63,043 nt of DNA, filler included, from Reticulomyxa filosa (GCA_000512085.1; 17 parts of 17 records of this genome joined end to end with filler, not necessarily neighbours in it); one strand, 5' to 3'; shown: positions 1-62,948, numbered from the whole stretch's first letter. A program made the numbers and translations. Notes: generated from the sequence alone by a model not told the origin.

Positions 1-3
1 ATC

Positions 4-608
4 GTGGAATTGATTATGAATCACAAAAATGATAAAAATAATAAAGAGTATTTAGACGCAATGAATATATGCAAATGGATATTAAAACAACGGGCCATAT
101 ACCTAATGAAGAGGATTGAATATGCAATGGATTATGTAAAAGATAAATTGGTTAATGAGATTATATTATCAAATTCATTGATGAAGATGTTATGAAACAT
201 TATTGCAAGAAGGTGCGACTTTTTTATTGGGAGTAAGTCAGAATGATTTGAAATAGCATTAATTAAAAAATAATTTGTTGTATCAGATAGCAAGTGGAAA
301 CGTAATGATTATAGTATATTTGATGAAGAGTGGAGCATTTGAACAAACACTTATCGCAAAAGCAAATATACACACCATTCAAACAGGAGCATTTTATCGT
401 CGTGATGCATCCACTAATCAAACCTATTTTCAATTGTGTCTTAATTCAACAGAACGAGTCCATTTTTATCGGTTTTATAAGTCCAAATTTTCAAAACTTA
501 TTAAAAATTTCAAAGAAATTGATAAGAAATTGGTTTGATTTTATTTTGACGCTAATGTATTTCATTGTCAAGTCACTCCTTCTTTGTCTCATATTTCTTA
601 AATTGTAA
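4..608 (+). pseudogene. Decayed, internally deleted 3' part of a paralog of the HEAT-ankyrin protein at 15400-19902
   Basis: KEYLDAMNICKWILKQRAIYLMKRIEYAMDYVKDKL matches KEYSDAMGVCELILKQRIMYPMKRIEYAIDYVKDKL. TNQTYFQLCLNSTERVHFYRFY matches TNQTYFQLYLNSTERNQFYRFY. The copy has frameshifts and stops, and about 850 bp of the intact gene is absent. Confidence 0.9.
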
Positions 609-7109: not shown

Positions 7110-7209
7110 NNNNNNNNNNNNNNNNNNNNNNNNNNNNNNNNNNNNNNNNNNNNTTAATTAATTAANNNNNNNNNNNNNNNNNNNNNNNNNNNNNNNNNNN
7201 NNNNNNNNN
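7110..7209. other. Artificial contig-joining linker (first of 16 identical copies)
   Basis: N44-TTAATTAATTAA-N44, with stops in all six frames. Copies at 7110-7209, 9838-9937, 12717-12816, 15295-15394, 20835-20934, 22800-22899, 26661-26760, 27954-28053, 37072-37171, 38292-38391, 43102-43201, 44854-44953, 48177-48276, 50348-50447, 52734-52833, 56186-56285. Genes are truncated at these points. Confidence 0.98.
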
Positions 7210-7270
7210 AAAAAAAAAAACACAATCAAAAATGGATTTTTTTTTTTGTTTTAAAAAAGCTAGCATCGAT

Positions 7271-8795
7271 CTACAATACTTTGGCGTCTTTTTTGAAAAA
7301 AGAATCTTTGTTTTGTGCGTTGGAAGTGAGTAAGTCATTGGTGCTTTGTAATGGACGATGAGCCTGATCTTGCAAACGAGGTGAGGTAGTAGTGGTAGTA
7401 GCAGCAGCGGCAGAAGGCGCCGTAGTGGTGTGAAACGAGAGCGAAAGCTTAAAACGAAGAGCCAAAGAGCGAGCCAATTGGCCAATAGGCAAATTGTGAA
7501 ATCGGAGGACGTCTGTTGCACTCGTTGTTGAAGCGAATGTTTCGTCCATCGCTTTTGTCCGTCGGAGACAGTTTGTTCAGCAATTCGCCACAATCCTTGT
7601 TGGGTTGGAAACAAAGGCTTTGGCACATTGAACACAGCACAGTGCAAGCATTCGAACCATTTCAATCGTTGATTCACATCGCTGCAGCGCAACACGAGCA
7701 CCCCTTCCTCGCCGATATGCAGTGTTAACGTCAGCAATTCCTCTTCGCTCAACGTGAGATTACTCTCGTCGCTTAAATCCGCAGTTTCGATCGAAGTCAC
7801 CATTGCCAAAGGTAACACTCCCAAAGGCTTCATCAATGTCTCTTTACGGTTCCACCACTTTGACAACATATTCGGTTCCTCAAACCATACCAACGCCTCC
7901 TCAAATAACCGAAACAACCGATTCTCCCATTTCACATATCCAAACACACTTTTTTGCGGCATTAATTTTTCCAACTCCCCTTTTTTGTTGTTTTCATACG
8001 TGCATTCACCACACATCTACATATATATATACATATATATGTATATGTGTATATGTGTATATTATTTGTATGTATTTATGTAAATAACCTTGAATCCAAG
8101 GCTGCAAAGTGCACAGGTTATCTTGGGAAGAAAGGGAAGGAATAGACAAGGACGAACGAGGTGATGACACAGAGGTTTGTAAGTTTTTAGGATGAAAGCA
8201 GTTAAATTTATTTATAATGGTTTGTAAATAAATGTCTTGGCTGAGAGGGTCGTCTGCTGTCGTCTTCATTGCTGATGATAACTCCCCGTTTTTTGTTCTC
8301 TTTAAATATTCATTCAAATATGGTAAATGCTTCGTCAGTTCATTCCATTCTTTCTCTTTGTCTTGCTCATTGTTCTGTTCGTTTTCATCTTCTTCACTTT
8401 CCATTGTCATTCCGGCCTCCTTTGTCTTTTCTTCCTCTTTCGCGTTGTTTTCTTCCTTGCTTTCTTTTTTGGCCGCTTTCATCTCTTTGCATTTCGTTAA
8501 TAACTCACTTTCCACTGTTGCGTCATCGGATTCTTCTTCGTTCCCTTTTTTTTTTTTTTTTTTTGAGGAGAAAAAAAAAAGAGTCTTTTTATGTGTGTAT
8601 GTGGTGTGATTTGTTGTTGAGTTACCAGTCCGTTCTGTCATTTGGACATCAATTGGATCAACCTATATAGTGGAAAGAGGGGTCATATCGGATTCGTTTC
8701 CATTATCCCAAGTTAATATATACATGTACACTTGTCTCGTGGCGTCAAAGCCTTTTGTTTGTAAGTAACAGTCCAAAACAACATACCAACGCCAT
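7271..8795 (-). CDS. PH-domain protein, multi-exon
   Basis: Splicing PWIQG to ELEKLMPQKSVFGYVKWENRLFRL...PLGVLPL...VLVLRCSDVNQRLKWFECLHCAV gives a complete PH fold, including the C-terminal helix Trp. N-terminal region is acidic and charged. First and last exons are tentative. Confidence 0.8.
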
Positions 8796-15294: not shown

Positions 15295-15399
15295 NNNNNN
15301 NNNNNNNNNNNNNNNNNNNNNNNNNNNNNNNNNNNNNNTTAATTAATTAANNNNNNNNNNNNNNNNNNNNNNNNNNNNNNNNNNNNNNNNNNNNAATTA

Positions 15400-18300
15400 T
15401 TGCATTCATCACCACCTCAAATTATTCCAATTCATCAAGTGATGTTGTTTATGCATTGTTTGGATGCTTGTAAAGCAGACACTGACAGTTCATTTCTTTC
15501 ATCACAACTTCGAACTTGTCACAAATCACTTGTTGATTCATTTAAATCATGGATCATCGCTTGGATTCTTTTTGATAAAGACAATGATTATGCTTATACG
15601 AATAGTAATCGTCTTCTTGACAGACCATTGAATAAAGTGATGGAATCGCATTTACCCAATTTTCAATATATTTTGCATCATCCAGATATCCACTTGTGTA
15701 TCATTGATCAAATTAAGATAATTCAAATACAATTGAAAGCATTTAATAATTGGAAATTAATAAAGGATCGATTGAATTTATTAAAGTATTTATTTATTTC
15801 AACAGAAAATTTAGATGTTGTTTTCCAATTTTACAAACAAGTTAAGAGATACGATTGGCTGTTTGCAGACTTACTTTGTGAGATATCAGTGAAATTGAAT
15901 GAACAACAATTGGATGACGTTATTGAATTTTTCATGGATGGACCTGTTGACAACTATAAAGGTGAAAAAATTGCATCTTCAATTGCAAAAATAGCATTGA
16001 AATTGAATGAGAGACAATTGAATAAAGTGTTTGAATTTTTGATGAATGCTTTTGAGAGTGGAAAAATTACAATTTCTAATCAATGTACAGACGCACTTGC
16101 AGCGATTTCATTACGATTGGGAGGAAAACAGTTGGATAAGGCATTCCGATATATCATTCATAAGCTTCCTTTGACTTTTTCTCATGATTATAATACGTTT
16201 CAATTTATAATGAAATTGAAAGAAAAACAATTAGATGATGTTTTTCAAATTTTGATTAGTCGATTATCTGATGAAAAGGAAAATATATATATTCGTGAAA
16301 GATGCGCAGAATTACTTGAAGAACTCTCAATGAAATGGAATGAAGAACAATTGAATGGTGCTTTCAATTCTTTAAAAAACATGTTCAATCACGATTATTA
16401 TTGGAGATATGAAGCACTTGAGACAATTACAGTAAAATTTTCTGGGAAGCAATTCGACAATGCTTTTAATTATCTCATTAGATATAACGGTCAATATGCT
16501 AGTTTACTTTATGGAATTGCAAAGAGATTGGATGAACAACAATTGAACATTGCATTGCATTATTTAATGGATAAGTTAAATGATAAAAATGAATATCAAA
16601 ATATTCGTCTCAAATGCATTCTATTACTTAAAGAAATTGCAAATAAATGTAATGAACAACAATTGAATAAAGTTTTTAACTCTTCAATGCATATATTGAA
16701 TGATAAAAATAATGCTGAGTTACATGAGGAATGTGCAGAATTAATTGGAGCAATTGCAGTGAATTTAAATGGAAAATATTTTGATGATGCTTTTCAATGT
16801 TTGAAAAATGGATTAAAAGATAGTGATGAGAGTGTTCGGGGTTCAAGTGTACAATCACTTGTAACAATTTCAAAGAAATGGAGTAATACACAATTGGATA
16901 TTACTTTTCAATGTTTGATTGATGGATTTCAAAATATAAATGGATATTATTGTGATACATCCAGAGATTTACTTAAAGAAATTGTAATGAAATTGAATGA
17001 AACACAAATCGATTCTGTTTTGACATGTTTGATCAATGGAATTAAAGGCAAGAATCGAAAATTGTATGCAAAGTCTATTGAATTTCTTTTAATGAAATTA
17101 AATAAAAAGCAATTGGATGATGTTTTCGAATGTTTGAATGGATTAGAATATGAAAATGAGTGTATTCGTGCATTATGTGGATATTCACTTAAAAAAATTT
17201 CAACAAAATTGGGTGATAAACAATTGAACAGAGTTGTCAGTGCTTTCATTCAAGGGTTAACAGATGAAAATGAATATGTTCGTTATCCACATGCAATATC
17301 ACTTGATATAATTGCAGCAAAAATGAGTGAGAAACAACTGAAAGATACAATTAATACTTTGATCGATGGATTGAACAATAGCAATGAACATATTCGTAAA
17401 TCATGTGCAGAATCACTTGGAGTAATTTCAGAGAAATTGAATGAAAAACAACTGGAAGATGTAATTAATGCTTTGATCAATAGATTGAACGATAGCAATG
17501 AATATGTTCGTAAATCATGTGCAGAATCACTTGGAGAAATTGCAATGAATTTGACTGATACACAACTGAAAAGAGTTTTCAATGCTTTGCCAAAGGAGCA
17601 GGAATGTAACTACTTTAACTCACCAGAAATTTCAACGAAATGGAATGAAAAACAATCGGAGAGGATTTTCAACGCTTTGATACTTTTTTTCAAACATTCG
17701 ATGGACATAGACAACAGCATGTATAAAAGATTATTAGTGAACTCACTCGAATTAATATTAACGAAATTGAATGGCAAACAATTGTATTTATTGGTGATAT
17801 ATTTGTTGAAAAGAGCGAAAAAGAGATGTAAGTATTGTCAAAATGTATTGTCAAAAATTTCCGAAGATATGTGGAAACGTGCAACAATTGGTGGATTAAA
17901 AGAACATAGTATTTTATCTAGTAATGCAAACGAGACAATAGAACTGTTAGCTTTCGGTTTGATGACATTCAATCCTCGCATTCAATTGAATTACAATGAC
18001 GATAATATAACTTTGAATGATTTGAACGAATTGATCATGTATTGTGATGAACAAGCTATTGAATGGGAATTTCCAACTCATCAATCAAAGTGGAATAACA
18101 GTAATATTGACAAGGATATTCAATATCCTTGCTTGAATAACCAAATCGAACAAGTTTCTAATGATGAGAATGCATTCAAAGGATGTTACACTATTGTTCA
18201 TGAAGCAGCAAGATCAGGAGACTTATCACAATTCAAATTGATATTACAAAATCATCCTGATATTGATATAAATGATTCATGTAATGAACATCGACAAACT

Positions 18301-19902
18301 CCATTGCAGTTGGCAATCGATCATCAACATTGGGATATTGCTCGTTATTGCATTGAACAAGGTGCATATATTGATATTAAAAATGGTGCTGTCAACTCTC
18401 GCATCTTAACTCCTTTTAAAAATATCATAGAATTTATTATGAAAAATAAAAAGAATAAAAATACCAAAGAGTATTCAGATGCAATGGGAGTGTGTGAATT
18501 GATATTAAAACAGCGAATAATGTATCCAATGAAAAGAATTGAATATGCAATTGATTATGTAAAAGATAAATTGATTGATCAAAATGGTGAAGTCAAAACC
18601 GTTGATGAAAAGAGTTATGAAACGTTATTGCAAGAAGGTGCAATATTCTTGTTGAAAATGAGTCAGGAACAATTAAAAGAAACATTAATAAAAAATAATT
18701 CATTGTATTATTATGCTGGTCGAAATATCATATCCATTACTATGGAAAATTCAATTACAAAAAATTTTGATGATGGATGGTATCCAACGCCATTTTTAAT
18801 CTTTCGAATATTTTTATTATTTGAAGTTTGTGTTCAATTAAAACGACAAGGGAGAAGTTTTATTGGATTGCCAGAATGTATGACATTCAAACAAGTATAT
18901 GAAAAAGGTGTGAAAGAATTGCAAGTACAATTAACAACTTATTGGGATTATATTATAGTTGAAGATTTTAAACATAAATGTCCAAATTTGATGGATGATT
19001 GGAGTTGCAATGTGGTGGATCGATTGATGAAGTTGAAGCCATGTAATGAAATGAGTTTGGTGGTTGGTCATGAAGGTCATTGTATTTATTTAAGTTTGTG
19101 TAAAACATCAGATTATGTTTTGGTTAGATTAGATAATCGATGGATGGACACAGTTCCATCGAATACACCTCATTCAAAGAAAGATGAATCGATTCGACCT
19201 TATTTGGCTGCTTATTTCAAATCAAATAGTTTAGAAATTGATAAAAACAAAGAATGGTTAAAAAAATACATTAAAAATGCAACAATATTGAAAGATAGCG
19301 ACAGCGATAAGAGTATGAAACATCTTTATTGCAGTGATAATAAATCATTATCTCCTCATGAGGGAAATGTATCATCAATTGTGAAAGATTGGCCATATCG
19401 TCCAATTCAAACAGATGCACAGAATTGTTATATGAGAAGTCACAATGTTGGATATCGAATTCGTTTGGATGATGTTCTTTATGAATGGTTTAGAAATCAA
19501 GGAGACAAGAGTTTTGTGTTCGAAAAAAGAAACTCCAATGCAATCTTGAAACCAAGTGATGTTTGTCCCTCAGAGTCGATGAAAGCCCTTTCGAAGCAAT
19601 TGAAAGCTGAATTTGATGAAGTGAATAATGGAATAGCAATGAAACAAGCGCTTGTTGCAAACGCAAACATTTCTGCAATTCAAAGCAGGGCATCTTATTA
19701 TCGTGATGAATTAACCAATCAAACCTATTTTCAATTATATCTTAATTCGACTGAACGAAACCAATTTTATCGATTTTACGAATCAAATTTTCCCAAACTT
19801 ATTCAAAGTGTTAAAGAGATTGATCATGGGTTTGTTCAATTTTGTTTTGATACCCGTGTATTTCAGTGTCAAGTTATTCCTTCCTTATCTTTTTTGGAAT
19901 AA
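15400..19902 (+). CDS. Large intronless HEAT-repeat + ankyrin-repeat protein with a putative C-terminal cysteine-protease domain (5' truncated)
   Basis: 1500-codon ORF. Many ~41-aa HEAT repeats (LNEKQLEDVINALINRLNDSNEYVRKSCAESLGEI). Ankyrin repeats TIVHEAARSGD and QTPLQLAIDHQHWDIARYCIEQGA. C-terminal GHCIY/LDNRW/PIQTDAQNC motifs. Confidence 0.88.
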   Translation: MHSSPPQIIPIHQVMLFMHCLDACKADTDSSFLSSQLRTCHKSLVDSFKSWIIAWILFDKDNDYAYTNSNRLLDRPLNKVMESHLPNFQYILHHPDIHLCIIDQIKIIQIQLKAFNNWKLIKDRLNLLKYLFISTENLDVVFQFYKQVKRYDWLFADLLCEISVKLNEQQLDDVIEFFMDGPVDNYKGEKIASSIAKIALKLNERQLNKVFEFLMNAFESGKITISNQCTDALAAISLRLGGKQLDKAFRYIIHKLPLTFSHDYNTFQFIMKLKEKQLDDVFQILISRLSDEKENIYIRERCAELLEELSMKWNEEQLNGAFNSLKNMFNHDYYWRYEALETITVKFSGKQFDNAFNYLIRYNGQYASLLYGIAKRLDEQQLNIALHYLMDKLNDKNEYQNIRLKCILLLKEIANKCNEQQLNKVFNSSMHILNDKNNAELHEECAELIGAIAVNLNGKYFDDAFQCLKNGLKDSDESVRGSSVQSLVTISKKWSNTQLDITFQCLIDGFQNINGYYCDTSRDLLKEIVMKLNETQIDSVLTCLINGIKGKNRKLYAKSIEFLLMKLNKKQLDDVFECLNGLEYENECIRALCGYSLKKISTKLGDKQLNRVVSAFIQGLTDENEYVRYPHAISLDIIAAKMSEKQLKDTINTLIDGLNNSNEHIRKSCAESLGVISEKLNEKQLEDVINALINRLNDSNEYVRKSCAESLGEIAMNLTDTQLKRVFNALPKEQECNYFNSPEISTKWNEKQSERIFNALILFFKHSMDIDNSMYKRLLVNSLELILTKLNGKQLYLLVIYLLKRAKKRCKYCQNVLSKISEDMWKRATIGGLKEHSILSSNANETIELLAFGLMTFNPRIQLNYNDDNITLNDLNELIMYCDEQAIEWEFPTHQSKWNNSNIDKDIQYPCLNNQIEQVSNDENAFKGCYTIVHEAARSGDLSQFKLILQNHPDIDINDSCNEHRQTPLQLAIDHQHWDIARYCIEQGAYIDIKNGAVNSRILTPFKNIIEFIMKNKKNKNTKEYSDAMGVCELILKQRIMYPMKRIEYAIDYVKDKLIDQNGEVKTVDEKSYETLLQEGAIFLLKMSQEQLKETLIKNNSLYYYAGRNIISITMENSITKNFDDGWYPTPFLIFRIFLLFEVCVQLKRQGRSFIGLPECMTFKQVYEKGVKELQVQLTTYWDYIIVEDFKHKCPNLMDDWSCNVVDRLMKLKPCNEMSLVVGHEGHCIYLSLCKTSDYVLVRLDNRWMDTVPSNTPHSKKDESIRPYLAAYFKSNSLEIDKNKEWLKKYIKNATILKDSDSDKSMKHLYCSDNKSLSPHEGNVSSIVKDWPYRPIQTDAQNCYMRSHNVGYRIRLDDVLYEWFRNQGDKSFVFEKRNSNAILKPSDVCPSESMKALSKQLKAEFDEVNNGIAMKQALVANANISAIQSRASYYRDELTNQTYFQLYLNSTERNQFYRFYESNFPKLIQSVKEIDHGFVQFCFDTRVFQCQVIPSLSFLE

Positions 19903-20094
19903 CATTTCTCTGTACTTCTTCTCAAACCCCTTTTGATATATTTGTGTGCTTGCAATTGTAAATTCCAAAGATTTTCTTGTATGAATAAAGCTATACCAAA
20001 AACAAACAAAAAATATCAATGTAAAAAACCTTTTTTTTGTTTTTCCCAAAAGGGTCATACCTACTTAAAAAAAAACTTCAGCAGCATTAACAAC

Positions 20095-20834
20095 ATGAAT
20101 AATCAAAATACAATACAAAACTCTCCTGAAAGAGAAACAAAACAACTTAAACAAGATCAACATCTGATTACCCCCTTTCAAACTTTGAAGGCTTTGCCCA
20201 CTCCACTTTCTCATTCTCAATGTGTGCTACACAAGCACGAAATAATCATTTGTGGTGGTTTTTATCAAGGAGCTTGTTATTCTTATCATACACTCAAAAA
20301 TGAATACAAGTTTATCTGTGAATACCCAGGTAACGTTCGATTATGGGGACATTGTGCAGTGAAATTAGCAGACAGCAATAACAAAGACAGCAATGAAATT
20401 ACTTTGTTGTCTTTTGGAGGATATTATAAGCACACATTAGTGATGAAATATGTAAGTGTCTGGGATAATCACAATAATGGCAATGAAATGAATAAATCAA
20501 AGAAATTAAACAAATCAAACAATTATAATCAATGGGTTCCCTTCACAGACATAAACAATGATCCATTTATCATTGGAAGAAGTAAAGATAGTTTCCAAGG
20601 AGTGCGTGCAGTGATTGGTGGAAGCAATAATCATTTGTTATTTATCACTTATCTTAAAAGTAATATTAGTGTATTTGATTTAAATACACTTCAATTTATT
20701 AAAGATGATATTTTACCAATTAATAAAAAAATATGTTATCATTGCTTTGTATCAAAGTCAGAAAATAGACAAGGACATGAAATGATGAAATCAAATAAAC
20801 GAAATTATCAAATGCTGTTGTTTTGTGAAGATAT
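20095..20834 (+). CDS. Kelch-like beta-propeller protein, 5' part
   Basis: LKALPTPLSHSQCVLHKHEIIICGG...CYSYH, HCAVKL...LLSFGG, RAVIGG: Kelch-type GG blades. Paralogous to 49615-50347. Confidence 0.85.
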
Positions 20835-46307: not shown

Positions 46308-47978
46308 TTAATCAACTTGATCATCTGTAACACCTCCACCCACTTGAAAGCTGCTTGGACTAAATCCAGTTTTTTCAAGATCTTCTTTCATAGCTTTTTG
46401 GAATTCTTCGAGCGAAATCATTTTGTCACCATTGGTATCAACTTCCTCGATCATTTGAATCAAGTGCTGCAATTGTTGACCGATAATATCATCGTCTTTT
46501 TTGGAGTCTTTCTGTTCGTCTTGATTTGCTTGGGCAGGCATTAAAACTTGTTTCAACTCATTGACATCAATTTGTCCATCTCCATTGGCATCAAACACGT
46601 TGAATACGCGATTAATGTATTGGTCATTAGTGCTCAATATTTTTCTGTACCAAATGGTCTTAAACTCTTCAAAGTCGATAACGTGATCACCGTTTTGATC
46701 GGCCTGCTTGATGATTTCTGTTGCCTCTTTGCGTGCATTGGTTTTGGCATATCCCATATCTAGCAACAAAAACGATAATTCTTCGTCATCCAAATAGCCA
46801 TCTCCATCAGCGTCCAAGCGCACAAAGTGTTGTCGAATCTGATCCGAAGGTTCCGAGTTCATGTTAGCAGCCAGTATTTTGGTTACTTCTTTCTTCAACT
46901 TGGACTGATAATTGAACTGTCGCAAGAAGCGAATGACATCATTGTTCAACGCCCAATCTCCAGCCTTAATGCCTTGGACCCACGGATGTCGAATGCACTC
47001 CTCAATGGACAATCGTTTCGAAGGGTCCTTGACCAACGCCTTTTCAATGAAATCTTTGAACGCCGGGTTCAACTTCAGCGCCGTCTTATAGCGCGCATCG
47101 TGTTCAGGATATTCCACTTCGTTCGTGACAATCGACTCGAATATGTCCGAATTGGTACGTCCCCGGAATGGCGCACGTCCGGTGAGCATGACATATGCAA
47201 TGACCCCGATGCTCCACACGTCGGCGGCCTTCAAAACCTCCGCCGTCCTCGGCTTCACAAAAGGTGCGAATTTGCGGGAGACTTCCGGGTCGCGTGACTT
47301 ACTCAAAGCCAAATAAGCCAATTCAGGGGCCAAGTAATAGGCAGTGCCAACCAAGTTGTCATACGTCTTTGTTGTATCATTCGGGTCGACCAAGGTTCCA
47401 CAGCCAAAGTCTATCAAAACCACGTTTGAATCGGCTGAGGTCGATTCAAGCACAAAGTTTTCTGGTTTCAAATCTCGGTGAACGACATTGTGTTGATGAC
47501 AGTACTGAACGGCTTCACACATGCTTCGTATCAGGTCGGCCGCTTTCTTTTCGGTGATTATGTATTTTTCATCTTTGCTGACAATGCGATCGAATAATTC
47601 CCCGCCTTCCAACAGCGATGTCACCACGTAGTAGTTCTGTTCGTCTTCGTCTTTTTCCACAAATCGTACCACGTTTTTATGGCCCGTTTTTCCGTTGTCA
47701 CTCAATGCCCCCAACAGCTCGCACTCCAACTCAAACAGTTTAGCCGACACGCTCCGCTCTTTCGACATTATCTTCACCGCCAATTTTCGCGATTTGTCCG
47801 TTTTCAACTCCGCTGCTACCACACGGCAAGAGGCGCCCTTTCCCAATGTGTTTTTGAACAGGTAGCGGCTTTGGATGCCTGTCTTGGATTCTTGTTGTGA
47901 TGAAGTCTTTTCTTCGGTTTTGCTCTGAGGAGCATCATCTATTTTCTCTGCTCGTGACGAGCCAAAGCAATTGCCCAT
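46308..47978 (-). CDS. CDPK: Calcium-dependent protein kinase (kinase + 4 EF hands), intronless
   Basis: MGNCFG acylation motif. GKGASC, AVK, HRDLKPEN, DFG, APE, DVWSIG. EF loops DADGDGYLD, DQNGDHVID, DANGDGQID, DTNGDKMIS. Confidence 0.95.
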   Translation of the reverse strand: MGNCFGSSRAEKIDDAPQSKTEEKTSSQQESKTGIQSRYLFKNTLGKGASCRVVAAELKTDKSRKLAVKIMSKERSVSAKLFELECELLGALSDNGKTGHKNVVRFVEKDEDEQNYYVVTSLLEGGELFDRIVSKDEKYIITEKKAADLIRSMCEAVQYCHQHNVVHRDLKPENFVLESTSADSNVVLIDFGCGTLVDPNDTTKTYDNLVGTAYYLAPELAYLALSKSRDPEVSRKFAPFVKPRTAEVLKAADVWSIGVIAYVMLTGRAPFRGRTNSDIFESIVTNEVEYPEHDARYKTALKLNPAFKDFIEKALVKDPSKRLSIEECIRHPWVQGIKAGDWALNNDVIRFLRQFNYQSKLKKEVTKILAANMNSEPSDQIRQHFVRLDADGDGYLDDEELSFLLLDMGYAKTNARKEATEIIKQADQNGDHVIDFEEFKTIWYRKILSTNDQYINRVFNVFDANGDGQIDVNELKQVLMPAQANQDEQKDSKKDDDIIGQQLQHLIQMIEEVDTNGDKMISLEEFQKAMKEDLEKTGFSPSSFQVGGGVTDDQVD

Positions 47979-49614: not shown

Positions 49615-50347
49615 TTATCTACAATATTTTATAATAATTTTATCAAAATCATCAATCCATACTAATTTAATCTTTAAAGTTTGAATCCAATATTTAATAA
49701 CAAATTTTATTTCTTTTTTCGACTGTTCATTATTTATCAATCAGTTTTTTGTATTTCATCAAAATAAATAAATAAACAAATCTTTACCAAGTATGAAGGG
49801 TCCCATATACGCACGTTTGTCTTTATGGCTGTTTTTTCATTATCTCTTCCTCCAATGACGTATATATGACTGTCTTCTTCACTCAATATTGCAACACAAT
49901 CAAATGATGGACTGGGTAAAGTGTTTTGAAATGTCATCCATTTGTCTTCTCGAATTGAATACTTGTGCACTGATCTTGAAACAGTATTGTTATAAATATT
50001 CAATCCACCAAAGAACAAGATGATATCATCGATACATACATATGCATATCTAAATAATGATACAATATCATGATAAACAGGTAGTTGATGAAATTGAAAA
50101 GTGTTGTTATCTTCATCATATTCAATTGATAATCCTATCTCTCTATAAAACAACAGCATTTGATAATTTTGTTTATATTTTTTATTTGTTTTCATCATTT
50201 CTTGTACTTGTTCATTTTCTGATTTTGATACAAAGCAATGATAACATATATTACTATTAGTTGGTAATTGATCATGTTTAATAAGTTCAAATGTATTTAA
50301 ATCAAACACACTAATATTATTTCTCTGATAAGTGATAAATAACAAAT
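49615..50347 (-). CDS. Kelch-like beta-propeller protein, 3' part with terminal helical-module exon
   Basis: YAYVCIDDIILFFGG...VHKYSIREDKW...LPSP, IYVIGG. Last exon 49722-49615 reads SKKEIKFVIKYWIQTLKIKLVWIDDFDKIIIKYCR*. Confidence 0.87.
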
Positions 50348-62060: not shown

Positions 62061-62948
62061 TCACAGTAACACCCATGACCGGATTGTGTTGTCACTTGCA
62101 CATGACACAATTGTGCCACCGTCCGGTGAAATGTCAATCCCTGTTACTGCTGCAGAATGTCCTTGCAATACTTGGATTTCCACTCCAAATTGAAGGTCCC
62201 ACAAGCGAATAGTTTTATCATTAGAGCACGATACAAGCGTTTGACCACCTGGTAAACATTTCACACACTGTATTGTACCAGAGTGTCCTCTTAATTTTCG
62301 CACTTCTTTTTTCGACGTCGCATCCCATATTCGAATAGTCCCATCTTCGGAGCAAGACACGACAAAGAGATTACTTGGCAGAAATTGAGCGTATACTACT
62401 CCACTCGAATGTCCAACCAAAGCTTTCTTTTTTTCAGCTGATTTTACATCCCATATCCCAATCGTGTTATCTCGAGAAGACGACACAATTTGTTTACCAT
62501 CTGATGAAAATTGTACATTAGCTACATCACCAACATGTCCTTGCAGTACTTTTATTTCTTTCATATGGTCCACGTCCCATAATCGAATTGTACGATCACT
62601 TGAGCTTGAAACGATGATACTATCATCAGATGAAAATTGTGCACTTGTCACACTACCTAAGTGTCCTTCCAACGCTACAATCTCTTCTCCTGAGTTGATA
62701 TCCCATAATCGAATTGTTTTGAGATCGGAACAAGATACAATTGTATTACTATTGAATGAAAATTGTACATCATTTATCTTTTCTATACTTTTTTGCAACG
62801 CATGGGTTACTTTCTCCAATTTTATGTCCCAGATTTGGATTGTCCCATCACTAGATGCCGAAGCTATTTTAGAGCCATCTGGTGAAAATTTTACACAATT
62901 TACGCGATTTGAATATCGGAGTTCCTTTGTCGGTTTGAAATATGGCAT
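62061..62948 (-). CDS. WD40-repeat protein, tandem paralog of the adjacent gene; 5' exons probably beyond the window
   Basis: Seven WD repeats (GHLGSVTSAQFSSDDSIIVSSSSDRTIRLWD etc.). ATG 62948 directly follows an AG acceptor. Confidence 0.92.
   Translation of the reverse strand: MPYFKPTKELRYSNRVNCVKFSPDGSKIASASSDGTIQIWDIKLEKVTHALQKSIEKINDVQFSFNSNTIVSCSDLKTIRLWDINSGEEIVALEGHLGSVTSAQFSSDDSIIVSSSSDRTIRLWDVDHMKEIKVLQGHVGDVANVQFSSDGKQIVSSSRDNTIGIWDVKSAEKKKALVGHSSGVVYAQFLPSNLFVVSCSEDGTIRIWDATSKKEVRKLRGHSGTIQCVKCLPGGQTLVSCSNDKTIRLWDLQFGVEIQVLQGHSAAVTGIDISPDGGTIVSCASDNTIRSWVLL

Follow-up and report, generated by a model that had tools for sequence, protein, structure and literature searches.

Does the C-terminal end of a giant repeat protein of the foraminiferan Reticulomyxa filosa carry an enzyme, and if so, what would that enzyme do? 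The question is raised by an open reading frame (ORF) in a 63,043-nucleotide stretch of R. filosa DNA, hereafter the window, which consists of small contigs strung together via N spacers. A preliminary description had reported an unannotated CE-clan-like cysteine protease signature at the C-terminus of this protein and had proposed a repeat sensor coupled to a deubiquitinase- or deSUMOylase-like effector. The signature was found to mark a real, previously unannotated catalytic domain, with catalysis predicted from sequence and model. The preferred reading, to which a probability of roughly 0.4 is assigned, is that the protein is an NLR-like NACHT-HEAT receptor ending in an ankyrin pair and a His-Asn-Cys thiol enzyme with the predicted fold of the Legionella effectors AnkH and LegA15, which upon receptor activation would cleave a dedicated protein that is neither ubiquitin nor SUMO, and that the family was derived from a symbiont and amplified. 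Fold and family are well supported; we infer the reaction, the trigger and the immune role.

The ORF and its parts were located as follows (all features on the plus strand):

15395-20834: contig carrying the ORF, which begins at the contig edge
15400..19902: ORF of 1500 amino acids, no internal stop, 5'-truncated; comprises a post-NACHT helical region and the parts below
16603..17604: HEAT/ARM repeats, residues 402-735 (Pfam), putative sensor
18181..18384: ankyrin pair, residues 928-995 (Pfam), assigned to the mobile enzyme module described below
18412..18714: all-helical linker from the ankyrin pair to the enzyme domain (AlphaFold model 2)
18715..19533: CE-fold cysteine-protease-like domain of the AnkH/LegA15 branch, residues ~1106-1378
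19573..19884: C-terminal alpha/beta extension, optional, ~105 residues, folded in model 2

HEAT and ankyrin repeats thus precede the domain, as had been described, and the HEAT solenoid is probably longer than the Pfam match. The protein is regarded as 5'-truncated because its reading frame is already open where the contig begins. The description of the domain as unannotated also held: no meaningful Pfam or NCBIfam match was found in the window protein or in 29 aligned members, no family was common to more than one of the 29, and PDB sequences gave no match at E 10 with either the single sequence or the domain profile. A profile built from full-length rows retrieved ankyrin matches only from the PDB and was discarded. 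The C-terminal extension was also present in seven of 45 distant homologues and in loci L001, L002 and L004; it had no Pfam match, and a structure search with model 2 gave only matches of Z 5-6.

The candidate catalytic residues were found at the positions and spacing first claimed for them (plus strand):

19078..19080: His1227, which opens a strand and is the predicted catalytic base; the next residue is Cys1228
19132..19137: Asp1245-Asn1246, closing the following strand (Asp codon 19132, Asn codon 19135)
19171..19173: His1258, a second conserved His overlooked in the preliminary description
19408..19410: Gln1337, predicted oxyanion-hole residue
19426..19428: Cys1343, predicted nucleophile, which opens a long helix

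The spacing was 18 residues from His to Asp and six from Gln to Cys. When residues 1101-1390 were shuffled 2000 times, 447 of the shuffles contained this pattern, which is therefore not beyond chance by itself. It was judged real because the residues are conserved and the fold fits, and a chance motif was ruled out on these two grounds.

A search of 1.84 billion representatives returned 106 matches, about 45 of them distant homologues (19-37% identity; alignment A2). In a MAFFT alignment of 45 distant rows the window residue was kept as follows: His1227 in 43, Tyr1230 in 44, Asp1245 in 43, Asn1246 in 44, His1258 in 43, Gln1337 in 41, and Cys1343 in 44. In a profile alignment, also of 45 distant rows, His, Asp, Asn and Gln were each present in all 45 and Cys in all but one (44); by comparison, the median conservation of a column was 0.29. 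The two sets differed slightly: in the profile set P0112 was moved to the Reticulomyxa-type rows, P0143 was lost (no profile match), P0150 was dropped as a duplicate of P0113, and P0142 and P0149 were added. Outside the triad, an Arg, a Glu, a Tyr and the second His were invariant or near-invariant. The CE-clan order His, Asp/Glu/Asn, Cys (definition: PMC6712400) is therefore present and conserved.

Conservation among paralogs, proposed earlier as a check, was also high. The Reticulomyxa-type set held 98 rows, including close matches assigned by similarity. All three triad positions were covered in 33 rows, and the triad was intact in 29 of these; where the individual position was covered, His was kept in 53 of 56 rows and Cys in 46 of 50. 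The broken triads bear on a reading in which the host keeps a symbiont effector domain as bait, an integrated decoy whose output is not catalysis. Four of the 33 rows and the metagenomic homologue P0081 have such a triad, and one paralogue in the window has no enzyme domain at all. Retention of the triad in 29 of 33 rows at 55-75% overall identity speaks against bait, and the decoy is considered very unlikely.

The AlphaFold and fold-search check suggested with the original claim returned a CE-clan match. An AlphaFold2 model of residues 1101-1387 had a predicted local distance difference test score (pLDDT) of 92.2 and a predicted template modelling (TM) score of 0.89. DSSP assigned strands at 1227-1235 and 1239-1245 and a helix from 1343. 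In the model His opens a strand, Asp/Asn closes the next antiparallel strand and Cys opens a helix, which is the CE-clan topology. Against 48,161 chains (VIA), AnkH scored Z 15.2 (231 residues aligned, root-mean-square deviation 4.8) and LegA15 scored Z 15.1 (225 aligned, 3.7). They were the only two chains at Z of at least 8, and the next match was at 6.4. Proteases of ubiquitin and ubiquitin-like proteins followed at lower scores: XopD 6.2, NopD 5.8, NEDP1 5.6, SENP7 5.2, SENP5 4.8, Ulp1 4.4, SseL 4.4, OtDUB 4.3, and RickCE 4.1. Each of the 12 CE-protease rows lay in the common range of Z, mixed with unrelated rows, and they agree with AnkH and LegA15 at Z 15. The best PDB rows in Foldseek were LegA15/AnkD (E 1.3e-3, probability 1.0, TM 0.39-0.50) and AnkH (E 0.09). 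A second model, of residues 1005-1500, had a pLDDT of 91.4; AnkH and LegA15 were again its top two, and the top Foldseek matches were the same for both models. The predicted fold is thus well supported as CE clan, AnkH/LegA15 branch.

Among viral proteins the best fold match was Harvfovirus A0A3G5A476, named 'ubiquitinyl hydrolase 1' (E 7.5e-3, TM 0.48), followed by Hokovirus at E 0.38. These giant-virus DUF3638 proteins are a weak fold match with no sequence match and another architecture. The BFVD entries A0A3G5A476 and A0A1V0SH35, both giant-virus DUF3638-type proteins, may share a related fold.

AnkH (LegA3; PDB 6MCA) shares with the window domain the fold, the ankyrin repeats before it and the lack of an aromatic residue after His. 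Its domain is described as XopD-like, with the motifs rGHa, D/NRg and GNCSWANV (PMC6712400), which are paralleled by GHc, DNR and GNC in the window domain. AnkH differs in that it is a stand-alone secreted effector with 6% identity and no sequence-level match, whereas the enzyme module here is found in a eukaryote and is fused to NACHT and HEAT, TPR, Sel1, LRR, WD40 or U-box. An AnkH orthologue proper (about 30% identity or more, GNCSWANV) was rejected on this identity and on the empty PDB sequence search at E 10. LegA15/AnkD (PDB 7KJ6, 7EW8, 7XQL) likewise shares the fold, the preceding ankyrin repeats and the His-Asn(Arg)-Gln-Cys set, at 11% identity. Its putative triad is H268-N290-C361, with Arg291 beside the Asn (PMC9757750). 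Because the third triad residue directly precedes an Arg in both AnkH and LegA15, the third residue here is, by analogy of motif register, probably Asn1246 rather than Asp1245. In alignment A1 Asn1246 was invariant and Asp1245 was not.

LegA15 has been reported as a GTPase that needs Gln356, Cys361 and Lys367, and hardly His268 (PMC9757750). The window domain could accordingly be imagined as an atypical GTPase of this kind, with Cys positioning a water molecule: LegA15 is a top structural match, and its Gln356 and Cys361 correspond by spacing to Gln1337 and Cys1343. However, the GTP-binding Lys367 has no counterpart. The essential Lys/Arg position (Cys +6) is Asn in the window and, among the 45 distant rows, Asn in 24, Ser in six, Gln in three and Lys in two, with the register set by spacing only. 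The Arg after Asn is kept in only 18 of the 45, and the His that is dispensable in LegA15 is invariant in the window family. A GTPase is the least probable of the alternatives considered.

The residue after the catalytic His also bears on the reaction. In the CE clan a highly conserved Trp follows this His and is absent from the YopJ acetyltransferases (PMC4961225). This Trp gatekeeper has been used to pick deubiquitinases (DUBs), and a Trp mutant of SnCE1 was inactive (PMC10643670). In the family studied here the position held Cys, Ala, Ser, Thr, Asn, Gln or Lys, and was aromatic in none of the 45 distant and none of the 56 Reticulomyxa-type rows. Canonical Ulp1/SENP membership was rejected on the missing Trp. 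The CE-clan proteases of ubiquitin and ubiquitin-like proteins (Ulp1/SENP, NEDP1, XopD, SseL, OtDUB, RickCE) do share the order of His, Asp/Asn, Gln and Cys and the core topology, at Z 4-6 over 135-165 residues; the window domain differs from them in the missing Trp, a larger helical surround and the lack of a Peptidase_C48 match.

The effector first proposed, a deubiquitinase or a deSUMOylase/deNEDDylase, is disfavoured from the sequence because the position after His is never aromatic, and this part of the preliminary description is judged improbable. It draws on the CE fold, with XopD, NopD, NEDP1, SENPs, Ulp1, SseL, OtDUB and RickCE among the rows at Z 4-6, on a U-box fused in two of 43 distant homologues scanned (a mild ubiquitin link), and on the name of the best viral match, which is a database name only. 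DeSUMOylating peptidases are also listed among NACHT effectors (bioRxiv 10.1101/2022.07.19.500537), and two Simkania Josephins without the gatekeeper were still counted as weak DUBs (PMC10643670). The nearest structures are nevertheless AnkH and LegA15 at Z ~15 versus Z 4-6, and in the available parts of the sources cleavage of ubiquitin or SUMO is not demonstrated for either.

The same receptor and fold could instead acylate (acetylate) a target, in the manner of the YopJ-family CE enzymes. The YopJ family, which are acetyltransferases, also lacks the conserved Trp residues (PMC4961225), and the conserved Arg, Glu, Tyr and second His, none of them part of the triad, might hold a cofactor. A YopJ cluster appeared in the ESM Atlas at 0.78-0.79, a weak lead, since an Atlas score below 0.9 counts as no more than a lead and ShET2 had a cluster with an equal score. 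No Acetyltransf_14 match was found in any of 29 members, the nearest folds are AnkH and LegA15, and no YopJ-family row was among the 50 VIA matches listed, which is not taken as exclusion. Acyl transfer is ranked second, as unlikely, after cleavage of a dedicated protein.

The NACHT part of the preferred reading comes from the paralogues. The domain searches returned 18 long and 50 short proteins and two more, all named Reticulomyxa filosa; these 70 records (41-84% identity), none identical to the window protein, include many partials and are not a gene count. The longest paralogues had the order NACHT-HEAT-ankyrin-enzyme. An N-terminal NACHT was found in six of the eight long paralogues scanned, with Walker A and B in four of the six and Walker A absent from the deposited model in the other two. 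One NACHT-bearing paralogue, P0002, aligned to window 15397-19887 from its residue 539 at 44% (tblastn). As this alignment starts at the first codon of the contig, the NACHT of the window copy would lie off the contig.

A further paralogue has decayed on another contig of the window:

1..589, plus strand: linker joined to the C-terminal extension, the whole enzyme domain gone, with frameshifts and stops

In the distant homologues the domain was fused to NACHT, HEAT, ankyrin, TPR, Sel1, LRR, WD40 and U-box. An ankyrin unit lay at most 200 residues upstream of the domain in 32 of the 36 with room for one. Of the 45, 14 had a NACHT; the enzyme precedes it in five of these and lies on its C-terminal side, beyond the repeats, in the other nine. 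An enzyme on either side of NACHT is as expected of a swappable effector. Because the ankyrin is upstream in 32 of 36 while the position of NACHT varies, the ankyrin pair, linker and enzyme are read from these sequences as one mobile module. The earlier idea of a repeat sensor coupled to a CE-clan effector therefore stands for the fold and the coupling to repeats; the ankyrins, which move with the enzyme, belong to its module and were rejected as the sensor.

Some of the homologues had other arrangements. P0099 (Holosporaceae bacterium 'Namur') and P0120 each combined a U-box and ankyrin with the enzyme domain in a single chain, a possible pair of ligase and thiol enzyme. A short homologue without NACHT or HEAT (L003:3-1715) had a signal-peptide-like start, an Asn-rich stretch and ankyrin, then the domain. 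It also had a four-Cys motif that by eye resembles a RanBP2-type zinc finger (no Pfam match). Its domain is likely inactive, as Asn has replaced the triad His and Ser the triad Asn.

Kibby et al. (bioRxiv 10.1101/2022.07.19.500537) describe NACHT proteins whose effectors include peptidases and may be C-terminal, and they propose that animals and fungi acquired NACHT genes from intracellular bacteria and then expanded them. The window family resembles these NLR-related systems in combining NACHT and repeats with an enzymatic effector, which can sit at either end. It differs in its AnkH/LegA15-type effector and its foraminiferan expansion, which are not among the systems described in the available part of that paper. 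A literature search, with most subscription papers outside it, found no description of the domain family, of Reticulomyxa NACHT proteins or of NLR-like immunity in Rhizaria.

The origin of the family was examined with two quick trees. In a tree of 74 domains, restricted to rows that cover 200 or more profile positions, the 29 Reticulomyxa-type rows formed one clade (Shimodaira-Hasegawa-like approximate likelihood ratio test, SH-aLRT, 100). This clade sat inside another (SH-aLRT 99) with the metagenomic P0078, P0081, P0084, P0086 and L003. In a tree of 18 NACHT regions, the four Reticulomyxa rows joined P0084 (SH-aLRT 100). The placement of Reticulomyxa rows with P0084 in both trees suggests that the whole gene moved as a unit, and from the nesting we infer transfer from a bacterium to the foraminiferan. 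An organism label was found for five of 30 proteins looked up: Jidaibacter acanthamoeba (two), Holosporaceae bacterium 'Namur', Protochlamydia amoebophila, and an unclassified Pseudomonadota metagenome-assembled genome (MAG). The domain is shared with bacteria that reside in amoebae.

A locus search with a five-sequence alignment gave two genome loci, two metagenome loci and no viral loci. The two genome loci were contigs of 724 and 561 bases with 35-36% GC in a Rhodobacteraceae MAG; they are probably mis-binned and were not used for taxonomy, and the profile had no match in 400 other genomes sampled from the phylum of that MAG. The metagenomic L004, which is 39-46% identical to P0078, looks bacterial because it adjoins an IS110 transposase. 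Two features lay beside the homologue on L004:

L004:814-1827: IS110 transposase
L004:2304-2489: start of a gene, sodium:solute symporter-like by eye (no Pfam match on 62 amino acids)

The family might alternatively not be nuclear at all: the contigs could belong to a bacterial symbiont whose DNA was assembled together with that of the foraminiferan, and the proteins would then be its secreted effectors. The 4.5 kb without an intron, the 30% GC and the fact that every named non-Reticulomyxa homologue is bacterial would fit this. The 70 Reticulomyxa-named records at 41-84% identity, on the other hand, would amount to more large copies than a small symbiont genome should hold, and decayed copies exist. 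The ORF also has a neighbour on its contig:

20095-20834, plus strand: kelch-like gene lying 190 bases downstream of the ORF and truncated where the contig stops; weak Pfam kelch scores only
50148-50345, minus strand: piece 71% identical to the kelch-like gene, on another contig of the window

Because the neighbour has the same third-position GC content (GC3, 0.24) and this relative on a second contig, a nuclear location of the family is likely, and a symbiont source for the contigs is scarcely probable. Other contigs of the window carried ordinary eukaryotic genes:

46308-47978, minus strand: calcium-dependent protein kinase with four EF hands
62061-62948, minus strand: WD40 array
7162-8016, minus strand: PH-domain protein

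Returning to the NACHT-HEAT receptor with a proteolytic effector, the mechanism would run as follows. The HEAT array would bind a trigger, and the NACHT would exchange nucleotide and oligomerise, so that the ankyrin-enzyme modules become clustered or unmasked. The ankyrin pair would pick the substrate, which would be cut only after the receptor is switched on. Cys1343 would attack within a triad with His1227 and Asn1246, and Gln1337 would form the oxyanion hole. The whole gene would have come from an intracellular bacterium of protists. In the foraminiferan, birth and death of copies would have expanded it into a family that serves as a repertoire for sensing infection.

Several points weigh against this reading. 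The NACHT of the window copy is not seen, as the ORF is cut at the contig start. The homologues were chosen by similarity to the query and, in the profile alignment, aligned to a profile partly built from them, which inflates conservation. The Foldseek E-values were only 1e-3 to 1e-2, with none at E 0.001. For AnkH the triad is required for function, and protease activity was not detected in vitro (PMC6712400); its substrates are given as not known in the available part of another source (PMC11475232). Together with the GTPase activity reported for LegA15, this means that the AnkH/LegA15 fold is no guarantee of proteolysis. The trees were quick, with midpoint roots and long branches, and do not fix donor or direction. 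Finally, the immune role is drawn only from architecture and family expansion.

A broader claim is held more tentatively and is best called doubtful: that R. filosa has an innate-immune repertoire of dozens of NLR-like proteins, built from one NACHT-HEAT gene that was captured from an intracellular bacterium together with its AnkH-type executioner, and that the domain is a third, widespread AnkH/LegA15 branch whose chemistry is neither deubiquitination nor acetylation. Such a branch, with dozens of diverse intact members and absent from Pfam and NCBIfam, would offer many proteins for settling the chemistry of this fold. If true, the broader claim would mean that a class of symbiont weapon became a host alarm, and the chemistry of the domain would explain the role of the AnkH triad. 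The family would also be an independent case in which a eukaryote acquired its NACHT receptor from a bacterium living inside cells and then expanded it, and it points to NLR-like immunity in Rhizaria.

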